From Squalus acanthias (lineage: Eukaryota), in NCBI GenBank assembly GCA_030390025.1, contig CM059431.1, positions 130,574,001 through 130,638,000 of the forward strand: a DNA stretch of 64,000 bases. Direction: 5' to 3'. Below the pieces are notes generated by a model. It had not been told where the DNA came from. It was given only the letters and a program-made list of their open reading frames with translations, and searched no databases. The stretch's first letter is position 1. Each line of letters begins with the position of its first letter. A program made the position numbers and the translations under genes. Positions 4,254 through 51,728 of this stretch are shown here, in pieces.

Positions 4254-4422
4254 CTGTTACAGGGAAAAGTGATCCCCAAGTACGAGAAATGGCATTCAGC
4301 AGAAAAGGGCAGTGGGCAAATGGATGGTGATGACATCCAGATTAGCGGAGACTGTGATGATGAGGATGGCTGCTTTGGCTCAGGAAACGGAGAAGTGAAA
4401 AAATCTTTCAAACCCTCTGAAC
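4254..4422 (+). CDS. gpc5: Glypican-5-like internal (penultimate) coding exon with heparan sulfate attachment Ser-Gly region
   Basis: ttcctgtttgcag acceptor and gtgagt donor; 169 nt, phase 0 to 1. Encodes LLQGKVIPKYEKWHSAEKGSGQMDGDDIQISGDCDDEDGCFGSGNGEVKKSFKPSE, matching the recalled GPC5 motif LLQG..P...KW...GSG...SGDCDDEDGCGGSGSGEVK. Exact paralog not confirmed. Confidence 0.88.
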
Positions 4423-20360: not shown

Positions 20361-20567
20361 TAACCTTTTATAATCTTTTATAATCTTGTTATATTATTTC
20401 CCAGTATTTGCCTCTGAACCATTATTTTGCAAATATTAATAAATAAGAAAAACAACCATTGTTGAGGTCTCTTTCTCATTGGTTGTTTTTCTTATTTATT
20501 GATATTTGCAAAATAATGGTTAAGAGGCAAATACTGGGAAATAATATAACAAGATAATAAAAGGTTA
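20361..20567. repeat. Long near-perfect inverted repeat
   Basis: Arms 20361-20458 and 20480-20567 with a ~21-nt loop; few mismatches and a 10-bp tandem duplication in the left arm. Confidence 0.92.
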
Positions 20568-20857
20568 GGAGCAAAGCTCTGTAGTTTACGCATGCCCTGT
20601 TCACCTTCAGCTTTGTTCTTACTTTGTAATCCATTTCCTGCCTATCATATTTTGTAACAGTGTGTTTTTCTTATTATTTGTGGAAACTGTAGTAAATATT
20701 TTGAGTGACTTTCAGATATTTAGAACTGCCTCAGGAGCAATGCTGGTGAGTGCAAGTTACAACAATTTTGATCAAATGAATGACCACCATAATCATGCAA
20801 CTAAAAGAGGAATGTTAAAAGGTTTATGGAGAGAGAATGTTACTATTTACTTTCATG

Positions 20858-21226
20858 CAGAGGCTGGTGTCGGGAGCGGAGAGAGCGACGGAACAGTGAG
20901 TATTTAAACTAACTTCGCAGGCTTTTTTTGCAGAGGCTGGTGTCGGGAGCGGAGAGAGCAACGGTACAGTGAGTATTTAAACTCACTTTCGCAGGCTTTT
21001 TTTGCAGAGGCCGGTGTCGGGAGCGGAGAGAGCGACGGTACAGTGAGTATTTAAACTCACTTTCGCGGGCTTTTTTCAGAGGCTGGTGTCGGAAGTGGAG
21101 AGAGCGATGGTACAGTGAGTATTTAAACTCACTTTCGCGGGCTTTTTTCAGAGGCCGGTGTCGGAAGTGGAGAGAGCGATGGTACAGTGAGTATTTAAAC
21201 TCACTTTCGCGGGCTTTTTTCAGAGG
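20858..21226 (+). repeat. Tandem array of five 72-74 bp monomers in CR1 5' UTR
   Basis: Units start cagagg at 20858, 20931, 21005, 21077, 21149 and (partial) 21221. Confidence 0.92.
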
Positions 21227-23313
21227 CCTACCAATCTCGCAGACCGGCGGCGGCATTCCAAAGCCACGTCACGATTCAAAAAGTGACGCGGGCAAGAGGA
21301 AGCAGCTGATTGGGTGAGTACGGCCAGGTGAGTATTTATACTACTTTATAGTTTGACAGTTAAGGTTAATAGTTTATAAAGTTTAGAAGGTCTTAATTTT
21401 GTGGTTATAGTTTCTAAGGTCTCAGTTGTGTAGCGGGGAGTGCGAGTAAACAAGGGCCCTTGACTATATCATTTAATTGTAGTGTAATTTGTGGTATTGA
21501 TTTGATTTAATTTAATTTAAATTAATTAAAGGGTAAGTCATGGCAGCACAGCTCGGCCCCGTGGCATGCTCCTCCTGCACTATGTGGGAAATCATGGACA
21601 CTTCCTGTGTCCCTGACGACCATGTGTGCAGGAAGTGTATCCAGCTGCAGCTACTGGCAGACCACATTGCGGCGCTGGAGCTGCGAATGGATACATACTG
21701 GAGCATTCGCGATGCTGAGGACGTTGTGGATATCACGTTTAATGAGTTGGTCACACCGCAGGTAAAGACTGCACAGGCAGGAAGGGAATGGGTGACCGCC
21801 AGGCAGAGTAGTAGGTGCAGGCAGGTAGTGCAGGGGTCCCCTGTGGCCATCACCCTCTCAAACAGATATACCGCTTTGGATATTGTTGAGGAGGATGGCT
21901 TATCGGGGAAGGCAGCAGCAACCAACTTCCTGGCACCATGGGTGGTTCTGCTGCACAGGACGGGAGGAAAAAGAGCGGGAGAGCTATAGTGATAGGGGAT
22001 TCTATTGTAAGGGGAATAGATAGGTGTTTCTGCGGCTGCAAACGAGACTCCAGGATGGCATATTGCCTCCCTGGTGCAAGGGTCAAGGATGTCTCGGAGC
22101 GGCTGCAGGGCATTCTGGAGGGGGAAGGTGAACAGCCAGTTGTCGTGGTGCATATAGGTACCAACGATATAGGTAAAAAACGGGATGAGGTCCTAAAAGC
22201 TGAATATAAGGCGTTAGGAGGTAAATTAAAAAATAGGACTTCAAAGGTAGTAATCTCAGGATTGCTACCAGTGCCACGTACTAGTCAGAGTAGAAATAGA
22301 AGGATATTTCAGATGAATACATGGCTAGAAGAATGGTGCAAGGGGGAGGGATTCAAATTCCTGGGACATTGGAACCGGTTCTGGGGAAGGTGGGACCAGT
22401 ACAAACTGGACGGTTTGCACCTGGGCAGGACCGGGACCGATGTCCGAGGGGGAGTGTTTGCTAGTGCTGTTGGGGAGGGTTTAAACTAAAATGGCAGGGG
22501 GTTGGGAATCTGTGCAGGTAGACAGAGGAAAGGGAAGCAAGGATAGAAACAAAAGACAGGAAGGAGAAAAGCAAAAGTGGAAGTCAGAGAAATCAAGGGT
22601 GTAAATCAAACATGGCCACAGTAAACAATAATTCTAAAAGGTCTAAGAGTGTTAAAAAAACAAGCCTGAAATCTTTGTGTCTTAATGCGAGGAGCATTCG
22701 TAATAAGGTGGATGAATTAGCTGCGCAAGTAGATGTAAACGGATATGATATAATTGGGATTACGGAGACATGGCTCCAGGGTGACCAAGGCTGGGAATTC
22801 AACATCCAGGGGTATTCAATATTCAGGAAGGACAGGCAAAAAGGAGGTGGGGTAGCATTGCTGGTTAAAGAGGAGATTAACACAATATTAAGGAAGGAAA
22901 TGAGCTCTGATGATGTGGAATCTGTATGGGTAGAGCTGAGAAATACCAAGGGGAAGAAAACGTTAGTGGGAGTTGTATACAGACCCCCAAACAGTAATGC
23001 TGAGGTTGGGGATGGCATTAAATGGGAAATTAGAGATGCGTGCAATAAGGGCACAGCAGTTATCATGGGTGACTTTAATCTACATATAGATTGGGCTAAC
23101 CAAATTAGTAACAATACTGTGGAAGAGGAACCAACTAGAGATCAGGCCATCTTAGACTGGGTATTATGTAATTTGAAAGGATTAATTAGCAATCTTGTTG
23201 TGCGAGGCCCCTTGGGGAGGAGCGATCATAGTATGATAGAATTCTTCATTAAGATGGAGAGTGAAGTAGTAGCTGACTCAGAGACTAGGGTACTGAATTT
23301 AAATAAAGGAAAC

Positions 23314-23739
23314 CGGTGGCATAGTGGTTAGCACTGGTGCCTCACAGCGCCAGGGACCCGGGTTCGAATCTGACCTCGGGTGACTGTCTGTGTGGAGTTT
23401 GCACATTCTCCCCGTGTCTGCGTGGGTTTCCTCCGGGTGCTCCGGTTTCCTCCCACAGTCCAAAAATGTGCGGGTTAGGTTGATTTGGCTATGATAAATT
23501 GACGCTTAGTGTTAGGGGGGGATTAAATATGTGGGGTTATGGGGATAGGATGGGATATGTTAGGGGGAATTAAATATGTGGGGTTACGGGGGTAGGGTGG
23601 GATATGTGTACTGTGGGGATTAAAGCAGGGACAGGGTACTGGACTTGGATGATCAGCCATGATCGTATTGAATGGTGGAGCAGGCTCAACGGGCCGAATG
23701 GCCTACTCCTGCTCCTAGATTCTATGTTTCTATGTTTCT
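23314..23739 (+). mobile_element. tRNA-derived V-SINE (HE1-like) inserted in CR1 ORF2
   Basis: A box tggcatagtgg, B box ggttcgaatc, V-domain-like core tgtgtggagtttgcacattctccccgtg...ctccggtttcctcccac, CR1-type tail; AAAC duplicated at 23310-23313 and 23740-23743. Confidence 0.9.
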
Positions 23740-26679
23740 AAACTACGATGGTATGAGGCGCGAGTTGGCTAGGATGGATTGGGGAATGTTACTTAAAGGG
23801 TTGAAGGTGGATAGGCAATGGCAAACATTTAAAGATCGCATGGATGAACTACAGAATTTGTTCATCCCTGTTTGGCATAAAAATAAAACAAAAAAGGTGA
23901 CTCAACCGTGGCTACCAAGGGAAATTAGGGATAGCATAAGATCCAAGGAGAGGACATATAAATTGGCCAGAAAAAGCAGCAAACCTGATGATTGGGAGCA
24001 GTTTAGGATTCAGCAAAGGAGGACAAAGGGATTAATTAAGAGGGGGGAAATAGAGTATGAGAGTAAGCTTTCAGGGAACATAAAAACTGACTGTAAAAGC
24101 TTCTATAGATATGTGAAGAGAAAAAGATTGGTGAAGTCAAGCGTAGGTCCCTTGCAGTCAGAATCAGAGGAATTTATAATGGGGAACAAAGAAATGGCAG
24201 ATCAATTAAATACATACTTTGGTTCTGTCTTCACAAAGGAGGACACAAATAAACTCCCAGAGATGTCGGGGAACATAGGGTCTAATGAGAGTGAGGAACT
24301 GAATGAAATCAGTATTTGTAGGGAAGTGGTGTTAGGGAAATTGATGGGATTGAAGGCCGATAAATCCCCAGGGCCTGATAATCTACATCCTAGGGTACTT
24401 AAGGAAGTGGCCCTAGAAATAGTAGATGCATTGCTGGTCATCTTCCAAAATTCTATAGACTCTGGAACAGTTCCCATGGATTGGAGGGTAGCTAATATAA
24501 CCCCACTATTTAAAAAAGGTGGGAGAGAGAAAACGGGGAATTATAGACCAGTAAGCCTGACATCGGTAGTGGGGAATATACTAGAGTCCACTATAAAAGA
24601 TGTAATAGCAGAGCACTTGGAAAACAGTGACAGGATCGGACAAAGTCAACATGGATTTACAAAAGGTAAATCATGCTTGACTAATCTACTGGAATTTTTT
24701 GAGGATGTAACTGGTAGAATAGATAAGGGAGAACCAGTGGATGTGGTGTATTTGGACTTTCAGAAGGCTTTCGATAAGGTCCCGCATAAGAGATTCGAGT
24801 GCAAAGTTAAAGCACATGGGATTGGGGGTAAGGTACTGACTTGAATAGAAAACTGGTTGGCAGACAGGAAGCAAAGAGTTGGAATAAACGGGTCTTTTTC
24901 CGAGTGGCAGGCAGTGACTAGTGGGGTACCGCAGGGATCGGTGCTAGGACCCCAGTTATTCACAATATATATTAATGATCTAGACGAGGGAACTAGATGT
25001 AATATCTCCAAGTTTACAGATGACACACAGCTGGGTGGGCGTGTGTGCTGTTGAGGAGGATGCAGAGAAACTCCAGTATGATTTGGACAGGTTAGGTGAT
25101 TGGGCAGATGCATGGCAGATGCAGTATAATGTGGATAAATGCGAGGTTATCCACTTCGGTGGCAAAAACAGGAAGCCAGATTATTATCTGAATGGCAATA
25201 GATTGGGAAAAGGGGAAGTGCAATGAGACCTGGGTGTCCTTGTGCACCAGTCGCTGAAGGTAAGCATGCAGGTGCAGCAGGCGGTTAAGAAGGCAAATGG
25301 CATGTTGGCCTTCATAGCGAGACGATTCGAGTACAGGAGCAAGGATGTCTTGCTGCAGTTGTATAGGGCCTTGGTGAGACCACACCTTGAGTATTGTGTG
25401 CAGTTTTGGTCGCCTTATCTGAGGAAGGATGTTCTTGCCATGGAGGGAGTGCAGCGAAGATTCACCAGACTGATACCTGGGATGGCAGGAATGACGTATG
25501 AAGAGAGATTGGGTCAATTAGGCTTATATTCGCTAGAGTTTAGAAGAATGAGAGGGGATCTCATTGAAACTTATAAAATTCTAACAGGACTAGACAGACG
25601 AGATGCAGGAATGTTGTTCCCGATGGCGGAGGAGTCCAGAACCAGGGATCACAGTCTAAGGATAAGGGGTAAGCCATTTAGGACTGAGATGAGGAGGAAT
25701 TTCTTCACCCAGCGAGTGGTGAATCTGTGGAATTCTCTACCACAGAAGGCAGTTGAGGCCAATTCATTAAATATATTCAAGAAGGAATTAGATATATTTC
25801 TTAAGGCTAAGGGGTTCAAGGGATATGGGGAGTAAGCAGGGACAGGGTACTGAATTTGGATGATCAGCCATGATCGCATTGAATGGCGGAGCAGGCTCGA
25901 GGAGCCGAATGGCCTACTCCTGCTCCTATCTTGTATGTTTCTATGTTTCTTTGTCAAATACTTGCTTGTCAAATACTGTCATACTGAGCTCAGTATAATG
26001 AATGTGTTGAACATGTTTCATCAATGTTTATAAATAGACATGAGAAATATCACCAGTAAAATATTCTCCCTGTTTAATATATTTTCAAAGTTCCTTGCAA
26101 TCTGGTTTACAATCCCAGAGGGAGGTCCATTACAATTGCTGACACCCACAATGGAACTGAAAGGACAGAGTCCATTTTTTCAAGTTAAGTTATTTGGGGT
26201 TCCAAATCTCAGCAAGGCACCTGAGTTGTTTGACAGACCAAGTGCTGCTTCATTGACCGTGAAGCCTTGATGCGCCCTGTGTAAATCCATAAAGATCCTT
26301 TGAAGGTACTTAACTCTAGCTGAGAGTGTTATTTAAGGCTGACTCCTGCAGTGATGCCTTACAACTTTAGCATGCAGAAGGAGTCCAGTAAGAATGCACT
26401 CTCCAAACAAGAGCAAGTTTTTCCGATGAACCGTATTAATTTAAAAGTTAGTAAATTTACCATATTTTTATATATCTCACAGATTTTTTGAATTACTCTC
26501 CTCGTTCCTCTGCAAAAAAAAAACAGTTACTGATAGGGTAAGAATATTGGTTACAAGCATCTGTGACGAGAAGTAATATACCTGGTGGGCCAGGACTGAT
26601 ATAACGAATGATGATATTTAATTATTCTCTACTTGTTGGATAGTTGTATGGACTCAATTATGATAGCTCAAATCCATTT

Positions 26680-31052: not shown

Positions 31053-31973
31053 CATCAGTTCTGATGAAAGAATTAGAGCTCAGTGACAACAAATGTTCTG
31101 CAGTATTTTGAAGGATAATAAAGGATATAATCTCGCTCTTTCATATAACAAACTATGAGCATTTCAAAAAGTACTCTTGTACGTAAAGTGTAATAAATGT
31201 ATTGATTTTTCAATTTTAATTAAAACCTAGTTTCTGGTGTTACTTTTTAGATTGGATTCTATTTCTAGATGGAAGTGAAATAGACTATTTTTGATTTTAT
31301 GTAATGGCTATGTGTTTATCGGCATTAATTCTAAATGCTTTGCAATAACTAAAATACAGTAAGTTGTGGGCAGCCCTCCCATTAATGTGACATTAAAATA
31401 AAGGAAATGTTACTTCTTAATTAGATCTGACTCACTGTACTGACAATAAAACACAGTATAGATGCACATAAATACACATAAAACAAAAACAAGGGAGGAC
31501 TTAAAAGGCACCAGTATGTATAGAAGATCTGACATTTCATAATATTCAGGTACACACACTTCTGCTAGTAAGTCGCTGCACACAACAGTACTGAGCTTAA
31601 ATCCTTTTGAGCTTAATAGTTCACTCTCCTTTAATCTTTCACACCTGGCTAAGTACATTGTCATATATCTGCCATTTTGTTGTAGAAAGAGGCTGGAAAA
31701 AGCTTGCTGGTATCTGGAATCATTGGCCCCCAGGTACTAGCTTGAGAGGCTGTAGGTAGATACTAATTGCACAAAGACAACACACATTTGCTTTATTCTG
31801 AAAGCATTTTTACATGTTGTACCTTTAAAGCAGTAACAACATTTGCCATGGGTTTGGAAGAGGCATCTGTCTGAGATATTATTCATGATGCGGAGATGCC
31901 GGTGTTGGACTGGGGTGGACAAAATTGAGAGGTCGCACAACACCAGGTTATAGTCCAACAGTTTTATTTGAAA

Positions 31974-32016
31974 TCACAAGCTTTCGGAGCTATCGATTTG
32001 CTCCTTCCTCAGGTGA
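31974..32016 (-). ncRNA. Minimal type I hammerhead ribozyme motif (3' pLTR)
   Basis: Reverse complement of 33946-33988. Confidence 0.75.
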
Positions 32017-32349
32017 AGTAAATTAGATACAGAATCTCCAAAGCATATATAGATGGAAAACAAAGAATGTGTACTTTACAATTGCAGACCAATAAATTAA
32101 ATCATCCTGACTATCTGCCGAGGTGTGATAAAGTTAATTAAGTCAGCCAGGAAGGTACCACATCAAAGACATAGCAAGATACAACTGAGACAATGAGGTG
32201 TAGTCGCAGGGGTTCTAACGTGTCAAAAGCTGCCGTCTGTATGTAAAACGAAAAGCTTTAACATTTTTTTACTTTTTTACTGGGAAAATTTTTACTTTTT
32301 TTACTGGGAATCACATCTGTGAACAAGCTAACGACGACTCAAGTCCGGA

Positions 32350-33752
32350 TCACGTCATGTATCGTGACATAAACCCAAGATCCCGATTGAGACCGTCTTC
32401 ATGAGTGCGGAACTTGGCTATCAGTTTCTGCTCGATGATTTTGCGTTGTCGTGTGTTTCTAAGGTTGCCTTGGAGAACGCTTACCCGCAGATCCGAGGCT
32501 GAATGTCCTTGACTGCTGAAGTGTTCCCCGACTGGGAGGTAACAATCCTGCCTGGCGATTGTTGCGCGGTGCTCGTTCATACGTTGTCTCAGTGTCTGCA
32601 TGGTCTCGCCGATGTACCATGCCGCGGTGCATTCTTTCCTGCAACGTATGAGGTAGACAACGTTGGCCGAGTCACATGAGTATGTACCATGTACCTGGTG
32701 GGTAGTGTCCTCACGTGTGATGGTGGTATCTGTGTTGATGATCTGGCATGTCTTGCAGAGTTTGCCATGGCAGGGTTGTGTGGTGTCGTGGTCGCTGTTA
32801 TCCTGAAAGCTGGGTAATTTGCTGCGAACGATGGTACTTCTGAGGTTAGGCGGCTGTTTGAAGGCAAGTAGTGGAGGCGTGGGGATGGCCTTAGCGAGGT
32901 GTTTGTCGTCATCGATGACATGTTGAAGGCTGCGAAGAACATGGCGTAGTTTCTCCGCTCCGGGGAAGTACTGGACGACGTAGGGTACCCTGTTGGTTGT
33001 GTCCCGTGTTTGCCTTCTGAGGAGGTCTATGCGATTTTTCGCTGTGGCCCGTCGGAACTGTCGATCGATGAGTCGAGCGTCATATCCCGTTCTTACGAGG
33101 GCGTTTTTCAGCGTCCGTAGGTGTCCATCGCGTTCCTCCTCGTCTGAGCAGATCCTGTGTATTCGCAGGGCTTGTCCATAGGGGATGGCTTCTTTAACAT
33201 GGTTAGGGTGGAAGCTGGAGAAGTGGAGCATCGTGAGGTTGTCCGTGGGCTTGCGGTAGAGTGAAGTGCTGAGGTGTCCGTCTTTGATGGAGATTCGTGT
33301 GTCCAGGAATGAGACTGATTCTGAGGAGTAGTCCATGGTGAGTTTGATGGTGGGATGGAACATGTTTATGTTATCGTGTAGTCTTTTCAGTGATCCTTCG
33401 CCATGGGTCCAAAGGAAGAAAATGTCGTCGATGTATCTGGTATACAGCGTTGGCTGGAGGTCTTGTGCAGCGAAGAAGTCTTGCTCGAACTTGTGCATGA
33501 AGATGTTGGCGTATTGGGGTGCGAATTTGGTCCCCATGGCTGTTCCGTGTGTTTGGGTAAAAAAATGGTTGTCGAAGGTGAAGACATTGTGGTCAAGGAT
33601 GAAGCGGATGAGTTGTAGGATGGCGTCTGGAGATTGGCTGTTGTTGATGTTGAGTACTGAGGCTGTTGCAGCGATGCCGTCATCGTGGGGGATACTGGTG
33701 TAGAGTGCCGATACGTCCATCGTGGCAAGGAGTGTTCCTGGTTCAACTGGTC
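32350..33752 (-). CDS. Penelope RT and GIY-YIG endonuclease (N-terminally truncated, uninterrupted)
   Basis: MDVSALYTSIPH, QTHGTAMG, YTRYIDDIF, SFLD, LYRKPTD, CKTC, NVVYLIRC...WYIGET, LRQRMNEH, GLN; frame extends upstream as GPVEPGTLLAT. Confidence 0.93.
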
Positions 33753-33945
33753 CTGCGACTACACCTCATTGTCTCAGTTGTATCTTGCTATGTCTTTGAT
33801 GTGGTACCTTCCTGGCTGACTTAATTAACTTTATCACACCTCGGCAGATAGTCAGGATGATTTAATTTATTGGTCTGCAATTGTAAAGTACACATTCTTT
33901 GTTTTCCATCTATATATGCTTTGGAGATTCTGTATCTAATTTACT

Positions 33946-33988
33946 TCACCTGAGGAAGGAGCAAATCGATAGCTCCGAAAGCTTGTGA
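33946..33988 (+). ncRNA. Minimal type I hammerhead ribozyme motif (inverted pLTR)
   Basis: Stem I TCAC/GTGA, core CTGAGGA, stem II GGAGC/GCTCC, GAAA, palindromic AAGCTT in place of stem III. Confidence 0.75.
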
Positions 33989-36900
33989 TTTCAAATAAAA
34001 CTGTTGGACTATAACCTGGTGTTGTGCGACCTCTCAATTGAGATATTATTGGCAGTTTAATCGACGTACATTGATTTAGTGCAATGGGATACAATAAGAG
34101 GAAGTAGCTACTCAAAATGTGCATCCCTTCTGGAGAATTCTTCATTAATTAATAGCTTCACCCTCAGGGATGAAGTGATACTAAGCCCGGATAATACATC
34201 TTTGATGGAGATGGTAATGAATCCTGATGGCAAGCTTTTACTAGATTTGTGAAAGAGCGATGAAGTGAAATATAATACCCTTTTCTCACATTTAACACTC
34301 TAGGCAAGGAAAACAAATAAGGATTTTCATCTGATTTCACAGGTCAACTTTTATTAACGATAGAACAAAATATTAATCTAACGGAGTTACAAGGACATTC
34401 AGTAAAGCCATGACTACTTTGTGGCTAATGTTGTCTAACTGTAAATCTACTGATTACAGTGATAACATTCTTTACCTCATTAAGTGCACAGCAAAGCTCT
34501 TAACTTTTGAAGGACAGCTGACTGCATTTGTAAGTAGTAAAGTGATCTCATCTGACTACTGCAGCTTAGTTGCACTTTCCTTGGGGATCGTAACTTAAGG
34601 GGCCATTATGTAGAGCTGTCACTGTCCACTTCAAAGCAAGGGTGTAGCAGCAACTACACAAGGACATGTAGGGGTTGATTTTCAGATTGCCTGCTGGGTG
34701 TAAATGGGGTGATAGTGGCATGAAAGTGGTGCGGTATGACTTGATGCCCAGTTCCAACTGGGTGGCCAACGTGACCTTCCCAAGGGTCTACCGCTGGGTG
34801 GCTGGAGTGCTCACCTCGGTCGGACAGTAGGCTCTATTAATATGCAAATATTATTATAATATTGGGATATGGGATCTTATGACCCCAATTGCCATTTTGG
34901 ACTCAACTGGTCAAAGAATGTACCGTACACACTCCGCCCAATAGCAACTGGCAGTCCAGTGGAAGAAAAGCCCAGAGGTAAGTTTTGAAATTTATATTTG
35001 TGGAGCTAGGAGAAACAGCAGTGTCGCATCAGGTCCCCCAACCCCACCTGACAATGGACCTTCCTCCCTCCGCCCCCTACCTTTTTCCGGCCAGGAGGCC
35101 AGCTGGGCCGCTCCATATTGCCGCAGACTGGAGCTGGCAGGCTGCCCTGGCGGCACTCATTTTCTGCCTACCGAGCGCCAGCCCTCTGTTAATGCAGCCT
35201 GGTTTTCAGAATGTGTAGGCTTTTGTATAAATACAGTATATTTATGTTGGTAACTGGTGGTTTACAGAAAACAAATCACCTGCGTCATGGACAACATAAC
35301 TTACTATGAGTTGGGTAGTTGATGCAAACTGATGTATTTCTTTCCCATAAACAACAAGTTCCTGGCATGTATAGTCTACATATTTTCCTAAAATACATAT
35401 TCCAAAAGCTTGTCTTAAACTTCAGTAGGAAAGTAACATTGCCGAGCTATATTATTGCTGTTTCTTGTAAGCATTATGAAAGAATCACACTAGAATAAAC
35501 ATTAGAGAGATTGATATTTCTTTTACAGAGCAATGAATTGTAGGATATTTTTTCTTGCAAAGATAACTATACCATAAACAATATAGCGTATGCTCAATTA
35601 ATAACAAAGCAGTCTAGTGCTGTTGTATGTCATTCAGAAATACTATTTTCCATCACAAATAGTAACTGAGGACACTGGTCTGAAGGGATTTCATTTGTCT
35701 TATGTATTAGAGAAATTGAAAAAAAGAGACACTTTCCTCCAGCATGCCCGGACATATTCATACAAGCCAGGAAACAAAAACAATAACCCATCTTTTCAAC
35801 TGAACACCAATTGAACAGGATGAAAAAAATGCTAGCACCATATTCTATATTGGAAGTGTCAGTTGTGAGAATTGATTCGTGGTGAATTGAGATACTGATC
35901 TACTGACTCCATTTGGTAATGCAATAAGTACAATATTTCCAAGCTAATTTAAGATAATCTCATTAAGATCTTTTCCTTTATGATGCATTGACACACAAGT
36001 CAATTCCTGAAAATACCTCAAATGCTACTGCATATAAGTCATTTCCACAACATTGAAAAGGAAGGAGAAAAATTTAATTTTAAAAAGTCCATAGGCTTCT
36101 GATTCAAAGGCATAGATGGGTGTAAGTTTGGGTTAAAGTTGCAGGTACAAGGGAAGAAGTCAGTCTCTCAGCTGTAGAAACTGCTTCTGTAAAGCTATGT
36201 CCATAGCTATCCAGTTTCCTTTCTAATCTGTGCTGTAGTTGATGGTTCATATTCTCTGACTCTTTCTTTAATTCAGGCTCTGAGGGCTCTGTCCTTTTCC
36301 TTCTTCATATCTATGACCTTCATCATCCAATTCTATCCAGTCTTTTGCTGATGATTCCACTGCGCATTCATCAACTTCTGATTGAATTGCCCTCAGTGTG
36401 TTCATTCTCCATTTCATGTTGAACATTACATCTTGCTCTCCTTCAAGCACGCCCTTTCATTGGGCAGCGAAAAAGTTGTTTCTTTCAATTTTTCAAAGAT
36501 ACAATATCTTCATCTCCCTCGCAATTCTAAATAATTATTACCATCTTTGGCTCCATTCTTAGCCCTTCATCTTTTCTCATGAAATGCAATGTAAGTCAAA
36601 ATAGCCTTTCCATTTATCAGTTCTCATCTTAACTGCCTCTATTTATCAAACATCTGTTACTATTGACGTTTGCAAGCTAATACTATTCAGGCTATTTATA
36701 AAGCATCCAGGTTTGATAATTCAAGAGTTCCCAAGTTACCCACCTTTTTCTCCTATCTATTCATGCCTAAGTTTTTTAATTGACTGTCAACATTTGAAGT
36801 ACTGCAGCAAGTTTGCGAATATTTAAAACATTGCTTTGGTATGAGGCAAGTATGTGGAAGAATTCGCTGCTAACGTCAATAAAACTCTTAACACCTGTTG

Positions 36901-44752: not shown

Positions 44753-45496
44753 ATGACTTCTTCCAGAGGCAAGGCAGCTCCTTAATTTAATGATGACTCC
44801 CTCCATGCTCTTGTGGATGCTGTCAGAGGGCACAAGGAAATTCTCTTCCCTCCTGATGGCCGAAGGAAGCCTCCTCAGCAGACCAAGGCAGCCTGGCTGC
44901 GCATTGCTGAGGAGGTCAGCGCAAGGTCCATATGTTCACGCTCATGGATCCAGTGCCAAAAAAGGTTTAATGATCTTGTGCGAACATCAAAAGTGAGTAT
45001 CCCATCACACTTGCCTTCAATCTGCTTCCCTTCTTTTCTCATCACCAGCACGCTGCGTTGTAAGCCTGCTCCTCCACATCCCACCTTACCCTTACTTCCC
45101 TTGTACCCTTACCTATCCATCTCTGTCTCTGCACTGAATCACTTCAGCATCCTGCCTATGCACCCCTTAGACTCACTCTCACTGTCATGCAGTGACAACA
45201 ACTAACAACGCACAGGGAGCTAGCTTCCTCTTGGCACCTTACCCTATCTTCGTCTCACTCAAAGCTTCTATGGTAGGGATTATTCACACTCACTCCATCA
45301 CTGTGGCTGAAACACCGCTTGTGTCCCTCCTTGCAGGGAAAGATAGCCCACAATAAGAGGGAGAGAGCACTGACTGGAGGGGGAACACTTACCCTAGCAA
45401 CATTGACCAGTGCTGAGGAGGCTGCAAACGAGATTGTTGGAGGTGGCAAGGACCTGGAAGTGGGCGATGGAGAGACGGGCAAACTAGAGGAAGCTG
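44753..45496 (+). pseudogene. Myb/SANT-like DNA-binding protein exons 1-2 (44753-44992, 45337-45496)
   Basis: MTSSRGKAAP*FNDDSLHALVDAV...AAWLRIAEEVSARS...RSWIQCQKRFNDL, gtgagt...ttgcag phase-0 intron, then GKIAHNKRERALTGGG; TAA at 44783. Confidence 0.78.
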
Positions 45497-46438
45497 GTGA
45501 CATAATAGAGTTTCATCCCTCTCAGAAAGCAATGGCATATGATGTTCATAGAGATTCGCGTTGTATCATCTGCTCAAAAGGATGTGTCTGCTACATCAAT
45601 ATCAGATGTCTAAATCATGCCTTTACTCTCCCACACGACCATCGAGCGCCCCCCTCCCCACAATCCAGGACGAAGAGCCGGACAACTCCTCAGAGGAACC
45701 TGAAGCCTCTGAGGGAGCAGCGTCACCAGGACTCAGTGCACCCAGCATCAGCGCAGCAACACAAACCTAGGTGGAGCCATCACGAGTTAGAGTAACATAG
45801 AACATAGAAGATAGGAGCAGGAGTAGGCCATTCGGCCCCTCGAGCCTGCTCCGCCATTCGATGAGATCATGGCTGATCATCTAAACTCAGTACCCTGTAC
45901 CTGCCTTCTCCCCATATCCCTTGATACCTTTAGCTTTAAGAAATATATCTAACTCATCCTTGAATATATTTAATGACTTCGCCTCAACTACCTTCTGTGG
46001 TAGAGAATTCCACAGGTTCACCACTCTCTGGGTGAAGAAATTCTTCCTCATTTCTGTCCTAAATGGTTTACCCGTTATCCGTAGATTATGACCCCTGGTT
46101 CTGGACTCTCCGACCATCGAGAACATTCTTCCTGCATCTAGTTTGTCCAGACCTGTCAGAATTTTATATGTTTTGATGAGATCCCCTCTCATTCTTCTAT
46201 ACTCCAGTGAGTATAAGCCCAATCGACCCAATCTCTCCTCATATCTCATTCCTGCCATCCCAGGTATCAGCCTTGTGAATCTTCGCTGAACTCCTTCCAT
46301 GGCAAGAACATCCTTCCTCAGATAAGGCGACCAAAACTGCACACAGTACTCAAGGTGTGGTCTCACCAAGGCCCTGTACAACTGCAGCAGGACATCCCTG
46401 TTCCTATACTCAAACCCTTTCGCTATGAAGGCCAACAT

Positions 46439-47741
46439 TTGGAAAGGGGCAACTTAATCAGGGATAGTCAACACGGATTCGTGAAGGGTAAGTCTTGCCT
46501 AACAAATTTGATTGAATTCTTTGAGGAGGTAACTAAGTGTGTAGATGAAGGTAGAGCAGTTGATGTCGTATACATGGATTTTAGTAAGGCGTTTGATAAG
46601 GTTCCCCATGGTCGTCTTATGAAGAAAGTAAGGAGTTGTGGGATAGAGGGAAATTTGGCCGATTGGATAAGTAACTGGCTATCTCATAGAAGGCAGAGGG
46701 TGGTGGTGGATGGAACATTTTCGGACTGGAGACCAGTTACCAGCGGTGTGCCACAGGGGTCGGTGCTGGGTCCTCTGCTGTTTGTGATTTTTATCAATGA
46801 CTTGGAGGAGGGGACTGAAGGGTGGATCAGTAAATTTGCTGATGACACCAAGATTGGTGGAGTAGTGGATGAGGTGGAGGGCAGTTGTAGGCTGCAAAGA
46901 GACATTGATAGGATGCAGAGCTGGGCCGAAAAATGGCAGATGGAATTTAACCCTGATAAGTGCGAGGTGATTCATTTTGGTAGGGCAAATTTGAATAAGG
47001 ATTACAGGGTCAACGGCAGGGTTCTGAGGAACGTGGAGGAGCAGAGGGATCTGGGTGTTCATATCCACAGATCTCTGAAGGTTGCCACTCAAGTGGATAG
47101 AGCAGTAAAGAAGGCCTATGGTGTGTTGCCGTTTATTAACAGAGGGTTTGAGTTTAAGAACCGTGAGGTTATGCTGCAACTGTACAGGACCTTGGTGAGA
47201 CCACATTTGGAATATTGTGTGCAGTTCTGGTCACCTCACTATAGGAAGGACGTGGAAGCATTGGAAAGAGTGCAAAGGAGATTTACCAGGATGCTGCCTG
47301 GTTTGTGGGGGAGGTCTTATGAGGAAAGATTGAGGGAGTTGGGGCTTTTCTCTTTAGAGCGGAGGAGGATGAGAGGCGACTTAATAGAGGTTTATAAGAT
47401 GATGAGGGGGATAGATAGAGTGGATGTTCAGAGACTATTTCCTCGGGTAGAGGCAGCTGTTACAAGGGGGCATAACTATAAGGTGCATGGGGGGAGATAT
47501 AGAAGGGATGTCCGAGGTAGATTCTTTACTCAGAGAGTGGTTGGGGTGTGGAATGGACTGCCTGCTGTGATAGTGGAGTCGGACACTTTAGGAACTTTGA
47601 AGCGGTTATTGGATAAGCACATGGAGCACACCAGAGTGATAGGGAGTGTGATAGCTTGATCTTGGTCTCGGACAATGCTCGGCACAACATCGAGGGCCGA
47701 AGGGCCTGTACTGTGCTGTACTGTTCTATGTTCTATGTTCT
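46439..47741 (+). mobile_element. 5'-truncated CR1 nested antisense in CR1 ORF2
   Basis: Open RT frame to 47659; (ttctatg)3 tail; host reads gccaacAT|ATaccatttgcc across the junctions. Confidence 0.93.
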
Positions 47742-50174
47742 ATACCATTTGCCTTCTTCACCGCCTGCTGCACCTACATGCTTACTTTCAGCGACTGGTG
47801 CACAAGGACACCCAGGTCTCGTTGCACTTCCCCTTCTCCCAATCTATTGCCATTCAGATAATAGTCTGCCTTTCTGTTTTTGACACCAAAGTGGATAACC
47901 TCGCACTTATCCACGTTATATTGCATCTGCCACGCTTCTGCCCACTCACCCAACCTGTCCAGATCATCCTGGAGTTTCTCGCTATCCTCCTCGCTGCACA
48001 CACTCCCACCCAGCTTTGTGTCATCTGCAAACTTGGAGATATTACATTTAATTCCCTTATCTAGATCATTAATGTATATTGTGAATAGCTGGGGTCCAAG
48101 GACCGATCCCTGCAGTACCCCACTAGTCACTGCTTGCCACTCGGAAAAAGACCCATTAATTCCTACTCTCTGCTTTCTGTCCGCCAACCAGTTCTCTATC
48201 CAAGTCAATACCTTGCCCCCAATCCCATGTGCCTTAACTTTACCCGCTAATCTCTTATGCGGGACCTTATCGAAAGCCTTTTGAAAGTCCAAATACACCA
48301 CATCTACTGGTTCTCCCTTATCTATTTTCCCAGTTACATCCTCAAAAAATTCCAGTAGATTAGTCAAGCACGATTTACCTTTTGTAAATCCATGTTGACT
48401 TTGTCCGATCCTGTCACTGTTTTTCAAATGCTCAGCTATTACATCCTTTATAATGGACTCTAGCATTTTCCCCACTACCGATGTCAGGCTTACCGGTCTG
48501 TAATTCCCCGCTTTCTCTCTACCACCCTTTTTGAATAGTGGGGTAACATTAGCTACCCTCCAATCCATGGGTACAGTTCCAGATTCCATCAAATGTTGGA
48601 AGATGATCAGCAATGCATCTACTATTTCTAGGGCCACTTCCTTACGTACCCTAGGATGTAGATTATCAGGCCCTGGGGATTTATTGGCCTTCAATACCGT
48701 CAATTTCCCTAACACCATTTCCCTGCAAATACTGATTTCTTTCAGTTCCTCCCTTTCATCAGACCCTATGTTCTCCAACATCTCTGGGAGGTTATTTGTG
48801 TCCTCCTTTGTGAAGACAGAACCAAAATATGCATTTAATTGGGCTGCCATTTCTTTGTTCCCCATTATAACTTCCCCCGCTTCTGACTGCAAGGGACCTA
48901 CACTTGATTTCACTAATCTTTTTCTCTTCGCATATCTATAAAAGCTCTTACAGTCAGTTTTTATGTTCCCTGAAAGCTTACTTTCATATTCTATTTTCCC
49001 CTTCTTAATTAATCCCTTTGTCCTCCTTTGTTGAATCCTAAACTGCTCCCAGTCCTCAGGGCTACCGCTTTTTCTGGCCAATTTATATGCCCTCTCCTTG
49101 GATCTCATGCTATCCCTGATTTCCCTTGTTAGCCACAGTTGAGTCACCCTTTTTGTTTTATTCTTATGCCACACTGGGATGTACAAATTCTGTAGTTCAT
49201 CCATGCAGTCTTTGAATGTTTGCCATTGCCTATCCACCGTCAACCCCTTGAGTGACATTCCCCAATCAATCCTACCCAATTCGCGCCTCATACCATCGTA
49301 GTTTCCTTTATTTAAATTCAGGACCCTAGTCTCTGATTCAACTACTTCACTCTCCATCCTAATGAAGAATTCTATCATATTATGATCACTCTGACCCAAG
49401 GGGCCTCGTACAACAAGATTGCTAATTAATCCTTTCTCGTTGCATAATACCCAGTCTAAGATGGCCTGATCTCTGGTTGGTTCCTCGACATATTGTTCCA
49501 GAAAACCATCTGGTAACATTCTAGGAATTCCTCCTCCACAGTATTTTTACTAATTTGGTTAGCCCAATCTATATGTAAATTAAAGTCACCCATGATGACT
49601 GCTGTGCCCTTACTGCATGCTTCTCTAATTTCCCTTTTAATGCCGTCCCCAACCTCCGTATTACTGTTTGGAGGTCTATATACCACTCCCACTAACGTTT
49701 TCTGCCCCTTGTTATTTCTCAGTTCTACCCATACAGATTCCGCATCATCAGAGCTAATATCCTTCCTTTCAATTGTGTTAATCCCCTCTTTAACCAGCAA
49801 TGCTACCCCACCTCCCTTTCTTTTTTGCCTATCTTTCCTAAATATTGAATAACCCTGGATGTTGAGTTCCAAGCCTTGGCCACCCTGGAGCCATGTTTCT
49901 GTAATCCCAATCAAATCGTATTCATTTACCTCTATTTGCGCAGCTAATTCATCCACCTTGTTCCGAATGCTCCTTGCATTAAGACACAAAGCCTTCAGGC
50001 TTGTTTTTTTAACGCTCTCAGACCTATATGAATTATTATTTACTGTGACCATGTTTGATTTAAACCGTTGAGTTCTTAGCCTTCTACTTTTGTTTTTCTC
50101 CTTCCTGTCTTTAGCTTTTATCCTTATTTCCCTTTCCTCTGTCTCCCTGCTCAGGTTCCCAACCCCCTGCCACT

Positions 50175-51125
50175 TTAGTTTAAACCCTCCCCAACAGCAC
50201 TAGCAAACATTCCCCCTAGGACATCGGTCCCGGCCCTGCCCAGGTGCAGACCGTCCCGTTTGTACTGGTCCCACCTCCCCCAGAACCGGTTCCAATGTCC
50301 AAGGAATTTGAATCCCTCCCCCTTGCACCATTCCTCTAGCCACGTATTAATTTGAAATATCCTCCTATTTCTACTCTGACTAACACGTGGCACTGGTAGC
50401 AATCCTGAGATTACTACCTTTGAGGTCCTCTTTTTTAATTTACCTCCTAACTCCCTATATTCTGCTTTTAGGACCTCATCCCGTTTTTTACCTATATCGT
50501 TGATGCCTATGTGCACCACGACAACTGGCTGTTCGCCCTCCCCCTCCAAAGTGTTCTGTAGCCGCTCCGAGACGTCCTTGACCCTTGCACCAGGGAGGCA
50601 ACACACCATCCTGGAGTCTCGATTGCGGCCGCAGAAACATCTATCTATTCCCCTTACAATTGAATCCCCTATCACTATAGCTCTTCCACACTTTTTCCTC
50701 CCAGCCTGTGCAGCAGAGCCACCCATGGTGCCAGGAAGTTGGCTGCTGCCGCCTTCCCCTGATAAGTCATCCCCCCCAACAGCATCCAAAGTGGTATATC
50801 TGTTTGAGAGGGGGATGGCCACAGGGGACCCCTGCACTACCTGCCTGCACCTCTTACTCTGCCTGGTGGTCACCCATTCACTTCCTGCCTGTACACCCTT
50901 TACCTGCGGTGTGACCAACTCGCTAAACGTGTTATTCACGTAGTTCTCAGCGTCGCGAATGCTACAATATGCATCCATCCGCAGCTCCAGCGCCGCAATG
51001 CGGTCCGTCAGTAGCTGCATCTGGATACATTTCCCACACACATGGTCGTCAGGGATACAGGAAGCATCCCTGATTTCCCACATATTGCAGGAGGAGCATA
51101 TCACGGCGCCGAGCTCTGCTGCCAT
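50175..51125 (-). CDS. CR1 ORF1p (Cys/His finger, coiled coil, SGNH/GDSL esterase), intact 316 aa
   Basis: CSSC...HVCGKC; GDSIVRG, PGA, GINDIG and DGLHL esterase blocks. Confidence 0.9.
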   Translation of the reverse strand: MAAELGAVICSSCNMWEIRDASCIPDDHVCGKCIQMQLLTDRIAALELRMDAYCSIRDAENYVNNTFSELVTPQVKGVQAGSEWVTTRQSKRCRQVVQGSPVAIPLSNRYTTLDAVGGDDLSGEGGSSQLPGTMGGSAAQAGRKKCGRAIVIGDSIVRGIDRCFCGRNRDSRMVCCLPGARVKDVSERLQNTLEGEGEQPVVVVHIGINDIGKKRDEVLKAEYRELGGKLKKRTSKVVISGLLPVPRVSQSRNRRIFQINTWLEEWCKGEGFKFLGHWNRFWGRWDQYKRDGLHLGRAGTDVLGGMFASAVGEGLN

Positions 51126-51728
51126 GACTTACCCTTTAATTAATTAATTAAAATTAAACTAATTGAATCCCACCAATTTCACTTCAATTAAATGATATAC
51201 TCAAGGGCCCTTGCTTAACAGCAGTCCCCGCTACACCACAGAGACTCTAGAAACTATAAACCACAGAATTTAAGTATGGAAAAAAGGAGAAAAAGAGAAA
51301 TACTCACCAACCAATCACTTACCTGCTTTCTGGTGACGTCACACTTTGATTATTTTCTACTTCTCTCTCTCCCGCTCTCGGGGCTCAGATTGGTAAGCCT
51401 ACCTGGTCGCCGCTTCTTTTAAAGCCGCCGCCTCGCCGCTGTCGCTCCACCCAGGTCCGCCGCCTCTATCACCTGGTCTATCACAGTGCATAAGTGAGCA
51501 TCAGCAGATGGTGGAGACAGCGACAGCAGTGGAGTGTCCTCGGCGGAGGTCGCAGCAATCTCCTAGCTCTGCTGAGCTGCATGCAGACGCTGTGCCTCTG
51601 CGGCCATCCAGAAAAAGAGCGTCTCGAGAAATAAAGGAACAAGTGCAGGAGTCTCTGGAAGGGTTTGCCTCCAGGGTTAGTGCGAGTGTGGATGGAATGG
51701 AGGAGTCATCTCTAACATCAGCACTGCC

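Follow-up and report, generated by a model that had tools for sequence, protein, structure and literature searches.

Does a minimal hammerhead that lies on the sense strand of a host gene cut the pre-mRNA in which it is embedded, or does it act, if at all, in the RNA of the mobile element that carried it there? The role of the minimal hammerheads of Penelope elements is called unclear, and their in vivo ends were not found, in the available parts of two studies (PMC4209133, PMC11167929). The window analyzed here, a 64,000-nucleotide stretch of Squalus acanthias DNA, holds such a motif at positions 33946-33988 of the + strand, with its 43 bases exactly as written in a first-pass annotation made from the letters alone. 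This annotation placed the motif in gpc5 on the + strand, and the gene assignment was borne out: an upstream glypican exon matches shark glypican-5 at 94%, and eight exons of a GPC5 protein labelled as basking shark mapped to the + strand of contig C7. One of the exons lies in the window:

4254..4422, + strand: gpc5 exon 7 (splice sites; protein mapping)

Intron 7 of gpc5 runs from 4423 for about 379 kb to exon 8 at G000:C7:130957546 and contains the element described below, with the motif 29.5 kb into the intron. A weak Rfam match to the snoRNA sR2 at 4323-4384 (E 0.0025) was rejected, being the coding sequence of exon 7. The same intron holds a pair of oppositely oriented CR1-type LINEs with about 90% likeness to each other (21405-25939 and 45801-51259), both with an esterase-like ORF1 and a reverse transcriptase (RT); these could pair in the pre-mRNA and enclose the Penelope copy. 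Ahead of the first CR1 copy lie a 91-bp inverted repeat with a 15-nt spacer (20371-20567) and five tandem units of 72-74 bp (20852-21227), and ORF fragments resembling Myb/SANT proteins, which we take to be of Harbinger type, occur at 44786-45795 and 669-1034. Outside the window, glypican exons match both strands near a GPC3-like locus (G000:C5:75019227-75075542 and 75627945-75887164), one pair with equal scores, hinting at a partial inverted duplication there.

The motif and its second copy in the window were resolved into the following parts, with positions in the conventional hammerhead numbering, which is also that of PMC4209133.

33946..33988, + strand: minimal type I hammerhead in the sense orientation of the host gene, cut predicted at 33984/33985 (sequence; descriptor and shuffles; covariation in relatives)
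31974..32016, - strand: identical hammerhead on the element's own sense strand, antisense in gpc5 pre-mRNA (descriptor search)
33946-33949 / 33985-33988, + strand: stem I, TCAC pairing with GTGA
33950-33956, + strand: core CTGAGGA (sequence)
33957, + strand: extra A between positions 9 and 10.1
33958-33962 / 33972-33976, + strand: stem II, GGAGC/GCTCC, with a 9-nt loop (sequence)
33977-33980, + strand: GAAA (sequence)
33980-33983, + strand: palindrome AGCT replacing stem III (active-fold pairing)
33984, + strand: position 17, a T; predicted cut triplet CUU, cut 33984/33985

The hammerhead core with stems I and II stands in the sequence as the first-pass annotation had it, with CUGANGA ... GAAA ... 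UH and both helices present, together with the extra base between 9 and 10.1 (A33957), the G10.1-C11.1 pair (G33958-C33976), and a palindromic 15.1-16.1 in place of a stable helix III. The proposed AAGCTT palindrome is likewise there, but only its inner AGCU is the pairing part; the A and U flanking it belong to the core, as positions 14 and 17. U at position 17 is allowed but is often a slower base, and in the available text of PMC11875169 there was nothing on CUU as a cleavage triplet. A loose hammerhead descriptor found only two matches in the window against 0.023 per window in 300 dinucleotide shuffles, and a strict descriptor had none in 300 dinucleotide-shuffled windows. The hammerhead search suggested earlier was positive by descriptor; the Rfam scan gave no hammerhead family at E ≤ 5 for the motif, unlike the canonical hammerheads modelled in Rfam, which match a covariance model and have a stable helix III. 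The 43-mer alone folded no better than its shuffles (z -1.32; 17 of 200 shuffles as good). In the youngest subfamilies, loop II (33965-33970) has a 6-nt palindrome of its own, ATCGAT, with a self-duplex of -4.3 kcal/mol, which is missing from the short-loop subfamilies; it could be a second dimer contact.

The sequences surrounding the two copies belong to a single insertion with the following features.

31873..31882, + strand: target-site duplication, left copy, 10 bp (at most 12 with ambiguous flanking T's)
31883..31922, - strand: 40-bp 'tail', on this arm only, ending over the ATG of the full-length ORF (a feature described in PMC8557442 and PMC11167929)
31923..32349, - strand: pLTR / 3' region after the ORF stop (sequence comparison)
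32350..33753, - strand: 5'-truncated ORF with the C-terminal RT part, CX4CxxC linker and GIY-YIG-type end (translation comparison)
33752..34039, + strand: inverted pLTR arm of 288 bp without a tail, complementary to 31923-32210 at 100% (sequence comparison)
34040..34049, + strand: target-site duplication, right copy

The whole insertion spans 31883-34039 and is bounded by the 10-12 bp duplication. The perfect 288-bp inverted repeat (31923-32210 / 33752-34039) holds both hammerhead copies, and the earlier claim that the inversion places one copy on each strand agrees with the identical copy at 32016-31974 of the - strand. Compared with a full-length 892-aa copy, the truncated ORF has 2 differences in 468 aa. 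The full-length ORF, open from its ATG, occurs in tandem arrays with a period of 3142 bp and one motif per unit, and contains DKG, YIDD, the CX4CxxC linker and a VYL...YIG end. In Pfam, the element ORF matched RVT_1 (E 3e-8) and had no GIY-YIG match at E ≤ 1, the VYL...YIG motif being visible. Neptune-type traits are found throughout, namely tandem pLTRs, an inverted truncated arm, a one-sided tail, and a single ORF with an RT, a CX2-5CxxC linker and DKG. This linker is common to Neptune and Nematis (PMC8557442), and the CX4CxxC sequence points to Neptune (or Nematis) for this 5'-truncated Penelope-like retrotransposon. The RT ORF, pLTR, tail and tandem layout all agree with the Penelope pLTR origin that had been proposed. 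A non-LTR retrozyme, which consists of short non-coding head-to-tail tandem units, was rejected since the copy here is coding, single and inverted. No GT-AG joint of a spliceosomal intron in the 5' region of the element was seen among the assembled contigs of four public runs. Contigs of two public runs from other organisms (X9 and X11) cover the 3' part of the motif and the tail; at 80% likeness, they leave most of the pLTR uncovered.

Sequence identity among copies indicates that the insertion and its family are very young: the best 40 of 460 scored candidates match the 288-bp arm at 100%, giving at least 40 identical copies, and the exact 43-mer is present in 30 of 30 fetched family loci. 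Absence of conservation across family copies had been named as grounds for discarding the motif, and these loci, along with covariation, speak for its conservation. Genome-wide, two core patterns had 930 and 48,724 matches (about 49,650), or one motif per 75 kb, against 3 and 18 (21) for the reversed control patterns. We anchored 97 distinct contexts on the downstream block and parsed 78 of them, the other 19 being mostly truncated or mutated. The loci include 30 picked by a core pattern, and several core letters, including the G10.1-C11.1 pair, were fixed by the parser. Compensatory stem changes are present at stem I pair 3 (C:G 46, T:A 21) and stem II pair 5 (C:G 72, T:A 4), and pair 3 of stem II is either A:T (63) or G:T (14), counts that are not independent events because the family copies are related. 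In the same 78 contexts, all four bases occur at position 7, loop II is 3-9 nt long, position 17 holds T (72) or C (6), the extra base between 9 and 10.1 is always A, and the palindrome is AGCU in 77. One subfamily (L192, L196, L197, L205 and others) has the core CCGACGA (U4C) together with a compensated stem II, GGAGT/ACTCC.

A second Penelope-type family in gpc5 (G000:C7:129878563-130936909), some copies of which show CpG decay, accounts for 20 of 35 descriptor matches and has other stems and the palindrome ACGU. The letters of the palindrome have changed and its palindromy is kept, as the dimer model predicts, and the catalytic core is kept across the subfamilies and in this second family. 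A chance arrangement of letters would agree with the weak folding z-score and with the lack of an Rfam match, but it is refuted by the copy number against controls and by the covariation, and further opposed by the descriptor counts against shuffles and by the second family with stems and a palindrome of its own, leaving it virtually no weight. The motif is almost certainly a minimal hammerhead, carried by the inverted end repeat of a Penelope-like copy.

Given this identity, does the + copy cut gpc5 pre-mRNA? The first-pass annotation had suggested that it could cleave the intron co-transcriptionally if it found a dimer partner, and an extended form of this idea is that such cutting of intron 7 lowers or alters gpc5 mRNA. 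In its favor, this copy is in the sense of gpc5 and its core is intact, and family RNAs of the same sequence could serve as partners in trans. Cpeb3 mRNA, moreover, is tuned by an intronic ribozyme (PMC10919898), and splicing can be aborted when an intron is cleaved fast (cited in PMC2995048). However, the same inversion that gave rise to the + copy also means that a perfect antisense arm is made first, as this arm lies 1.5 kb upstream on the + strand and is transcribed before the motif. The duplex of the two 288-nt arms is predicted at -543.8 kcal/mol and that of the motif with its complement at -85.3 kcal/mol, compared with -10.5 kcal/mol for the monomer fold and only -2.5 kcal/mol for the 4-bp AGCU dimer helix. 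In the minimum-energy fold of 31883-33995, a prediction that leaves out proteins, editing and helicases, 43 of the 43 motif bases were paired with the antisense arm. Counts of A>G in contigs of the public runs were mixed, and we did not take them as a sign of editing.

Partners for the motif are also distant. The nearest intact AGCU sense copy upstream is 94.7 kb away, across exon 7, and is itself preceded by an antisense arm, and the nearest downstream is 188 kb away. A sense copy 77 kb downstream has a damaged palindrome, and those at 39 and 51 kb are of the ACGU type, for which the computed ACGU-AGCU energy of +0.4 kcal/mol means no pairing. Over the 1.124 Mb covering gpc5, the 35 descriptor matches comprise 16 sense and 19 antisense (p 0.74), so no purging of sense motifs is seen. 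In addition, splicing was unharmed where a hammerhead cut its intron slowly (cited in PMC2995048), and an insertion this young is not an old regulatory site. A host-regulatory site like that of Cpeb3, which is old, single-copy and folds alone, was rejected for this young repeat copy with its predicted capture in a hairpin. With the antisense arm made first, no near partner and no depletion of sense copies, cleavage of gpc5 intron 7 has only a slim chance, and the motif very probably stays uncut in gpc5 pre-mRNA, as modeled here. In close motif pairs among the first 100 core matches listed, a - copy is nearly always followed, back to back, by a + copy, so that host transcription from either side reaches the antisense arm before the sense one.

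If the ribozyme is mute in the host transcript, its activity may be sought in the copying of the element itself. Reverse transcription begins within the tail and arrives at the predicted cut after about 55-95 nt, so that cut templates should leave marks there. The marks were counted in a single assembly. Among 100 copies listed of 69,641 downstream-block matches, 97 by hand count read through the cut, 1 ends at the cut or one base past it, and 2 stop before reaching it. A single extra base within 11 bases around the cut is present in 129 copies, against about 85,940 of normal length, with some double counts. We classified by hand the 100 listed of these 129 insertions, 97 of them distinct, and found that 60 of the 97 have an extra G exactly at the scissile bond, a peak with p 6e-40 against 1 slot in 12. 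The remainder consists of 2 with another base at the bond, 4 with an extra T in the adjoining TT, 18 that lengthen T or A runs, and 13 elsewhere; the other G of GTG (GUG) was never duplicated (0 of 97 listed). We estimate about 77 extra-G copies, or about 0.09%, with at least 10 loop variants. All 60 belong to the TCAC/GTGA subfamilies and none to TTAC/GTAA, which makes up about a quarter of the normal-length rows listed.

To place the extra G within its insertion, we fetched 56 of the 60 loci, of which 32 had a sister arm covering the site, 17 had no partner in range, 4 had partners that stop short, and 3 had probably unrelated neighbors. In none of the 32 pairs, each with one tailed and one untailed arm, did the sister arm have the extra G, which lay on the tailed arm in 16 and on the untailed arm in 16. 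The spread of the extra G from a master copy is ruled out by this result. Arms identical over 44 nt were found in 17 of 39 extra-G pairs and 14 of 33 baseline pairs (p 0.66, at low power and with neighboring insertions included in the sets), and in 1 of 8 pairs with other single-base insertions. No subfamily switching at the cut was evident by eye in extra-G copies. The assembled contigs of four public runs (22 records, 18 of them from one run) had no contig with the extra G, in a type of data that drops rare variants.

Longer insertions break at the same bond in 12 of 95 cases, 8 of them without microhomology, and do so in both stem I classes (hand count). The additions at the cut, in element sense, are A, AAA, AAAA, TAG followed by nine A's, and a 10-mer. 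Stretches of 4-24 nt are also duplicated, again in both classes, with the second unit starting at G1.1. Another 39 of the 95 are 7-nt slips in stem II, away from the cut (hand count), which indicates that copying stumbles on structure without cleavage too. By hand count, about 62 of 100 listed rows (of 253) are junctions at the cut; the base just upstream gives about 45 of 100 listed (of 120), and the base just downstream about 46 of 100 listed (of 200). This excess of truncations is modest and confounded by UCAC microhomology, and we did not count it as support. In one locus (L315), both arms break at the predicted cut, where one joins and the other has five extra letters.

How these scars arise may be pictured as follows. 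In the host transcript, the antisense arm, made first, would capture the motif in the 288-bp hairpin predicted by folding. In transcripts of tandem arrays or in a copying complex of two RNAs, two AGCU palindromes may pair, probably with the aid of the element's protein, and most templates would still be copied uncut. Now and then, RT would reach a cut 5' end at G1.1, add or re-copy letters, and jump to the upstream fragment or a second RNA, leaving an extra G, oligo(A) or a short duplication. The R2 RT adds letters when running off ribozyme-cut RNA (PMC3774820), from which we infer the same step here. As a whole, we consider it likely that the hammerhead of this young Penelope-like copy stays uncut in host pre-mRNA and that occasional dimer cutting takes place in element RNA during copying. 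Whether the scars were caused by real cleavage in vivo is evenly balanced in our judgment; so too is the fuller reading of the extra G, oligo(A) and short duplications as a germline fossil record of Penelope hammerhead cleavage, with RT run-off and a jump to the upstream fragment or dimer partner.

Instead of cleavage, the motif may fold and hardly cut, the scars then reflecting RT that pauses on intact RNA and either slips or briefly copies the stem I arm of the sister cDNA. The 6-bp AAGCUU self-duplex (-4.3 kcal/mol) ends at position 17, so that its edge coincides with the cut, many junctions there join via UCAC microhomology, and slips in stem II outnumber the multi-base events at the cut (39 and 12, respectively, of 95). 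The extra G moreover perfects a 5-bp stem I and may thus be templated by the sister cDNA, and its confinement to UCAC/GUGA fits such templating, or a context-specific error, just as well. Pausing is less at ease with the non-duplicated additions (A, AAA, AAAA, TAG-A9) placed exactly at the cut in both stem I classes, as such additions are typical of template ends in R2 (PMC3774820), and with the catalytic core kept across subfamilies and in the second family; it seems a possible but rather unlikely source of the scars. Still less probable, and doubtful in our view, is an origin of the extra G outside retrotransposition, either at a DNA hotspot that mutated later or through an error of sequencing or assembly specific to this context. 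The use of one assembly, the restriction of a single-base duplication to one sequence context, its arm specificity, as expected of any later change, and, weakly given the tiny coverage in three of the four public runs, its absence from them would all agree with such an origin. On the other hand, a single-base error does not give the multi-base additions and the 4-24 nt duplications at the same bond, extra-G pairs are not older than the baseline within the low power of that comparison, and the G two bases away is never duplicated among the 97 listed.

The motif itself is ordinary, a member of a known hammerhead/Penelope kind; what is new is the family-wide pile-up of extra letters at its predicted cut. 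In the literature searched, mostly non-subscription texts without supplements, we came across no account of insertion scars where a Penelope hammerhead is cut. Scars that can be counted at the scissile bond offer a direct test of whether minimal Penelope hammerheads cut in cells, and, if the proposed reading is true, the scars would be family-wide in vivo evidence of minimal ribozymes cutting inside the copying complex, and the inverted insertion layout would automatically mute ribozymes in host genes. This layout offers a simple reason why introns tolerate one motif per 75 kb, as the antisense arm is made first whichever way the gene runs. A 2026 preprint describes, in its available part, hammerhead retrozymes in one cartilaginous fish and a mild hammerhead deficit in Xenopus introns (10.64898/2026.07.22.740005).

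Published work already covers the minimal hammerheads of Penelope pLTRs, the dimer model and opposite-strand pairs, with reports from fish Neptune, Poseidon and Xena elements and low activity even for dimers (PMC4209133). As far as the available parts of that paper describe them (Cervera and de la Pena 2014, PMC4209133), the metazoan motifs are like the present one in being type I with a short helix I, an extra base 9/10.1, G10.1-C11.1 and a palindromic 15.2-16.2, and in lying in the pLTR as opposite-strand pairs and as tandem copies spaced by about 3 kb; sharks are not among the animals named in those parts. Helix II has 5 bp here and 7-8 bp in the Schistosoma families, and the roughly 49,650 matches here compare with about 4,000 in coelacanth and 9,000 in Xenopus tropicalis (PMC4209133), counts for which the descriptors and assemblies differ. 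The element resembles the endonuclease-bearing Penelope-like elements of the Neptune clade (Craig et al. 2021, PMC8557442) in its single ORF, which encodes an RT followed by a putative endonuclease and has the CX2-5CxxC linker and DKG, and in its partial tandems, its inverted arm with 5' truncation and its 30-40 bp tail on one end, and no difference was found from the available parts of that description. Like the Cpeb3 ribozyme, the motif is of a self-cleaving kind, with cleavage predicted here, and lies on the sense strand of a vertebrate intron (PMC10919898). The Cpeb3 ribozyme is HDV-like, monomer-active and single-copy and affects its mRNA (PMC10919898), whereas the motif here belongs to a young repeat, depends on a partner and is enclosed in a perfect hairpin.

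The closest functional parallels come from retrotransposons in which copying has been followed. PAc, the Poseidon element of Anolis carolinensis (Frangieh et al. 2024, PMC11167929), likewise has two reverse-transcription starts bounding the tail, extension of both DNA strands, a hammerhead just upstream and a template mostly uncut; unprocessed RNA is the main substrate of the Anolis system, and its ribozyme required the protein of the element for cleavage, with no RNA-seq read found to end at the cut site in the parts of the report available (PMC11167929). The cut lies 26 nt inside the ORF in PAc and about 90 nt upstream of the ATG here, and while the same parts record no in vivo trace of cleavage for PAc (PMC11167929), genomic scars cluster on the cut in the present family. 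The ribozyme of R2 is HDV-like in contrast to the hammerhead here, and its cut forms the 5' end of most full-length copies, whereas fewer than about 1 in 100 copies in this family show the cut site; like the present element, R2 has its cut site recorded in genomic junctions, with non-templated letters at run-off (PMC3774820).
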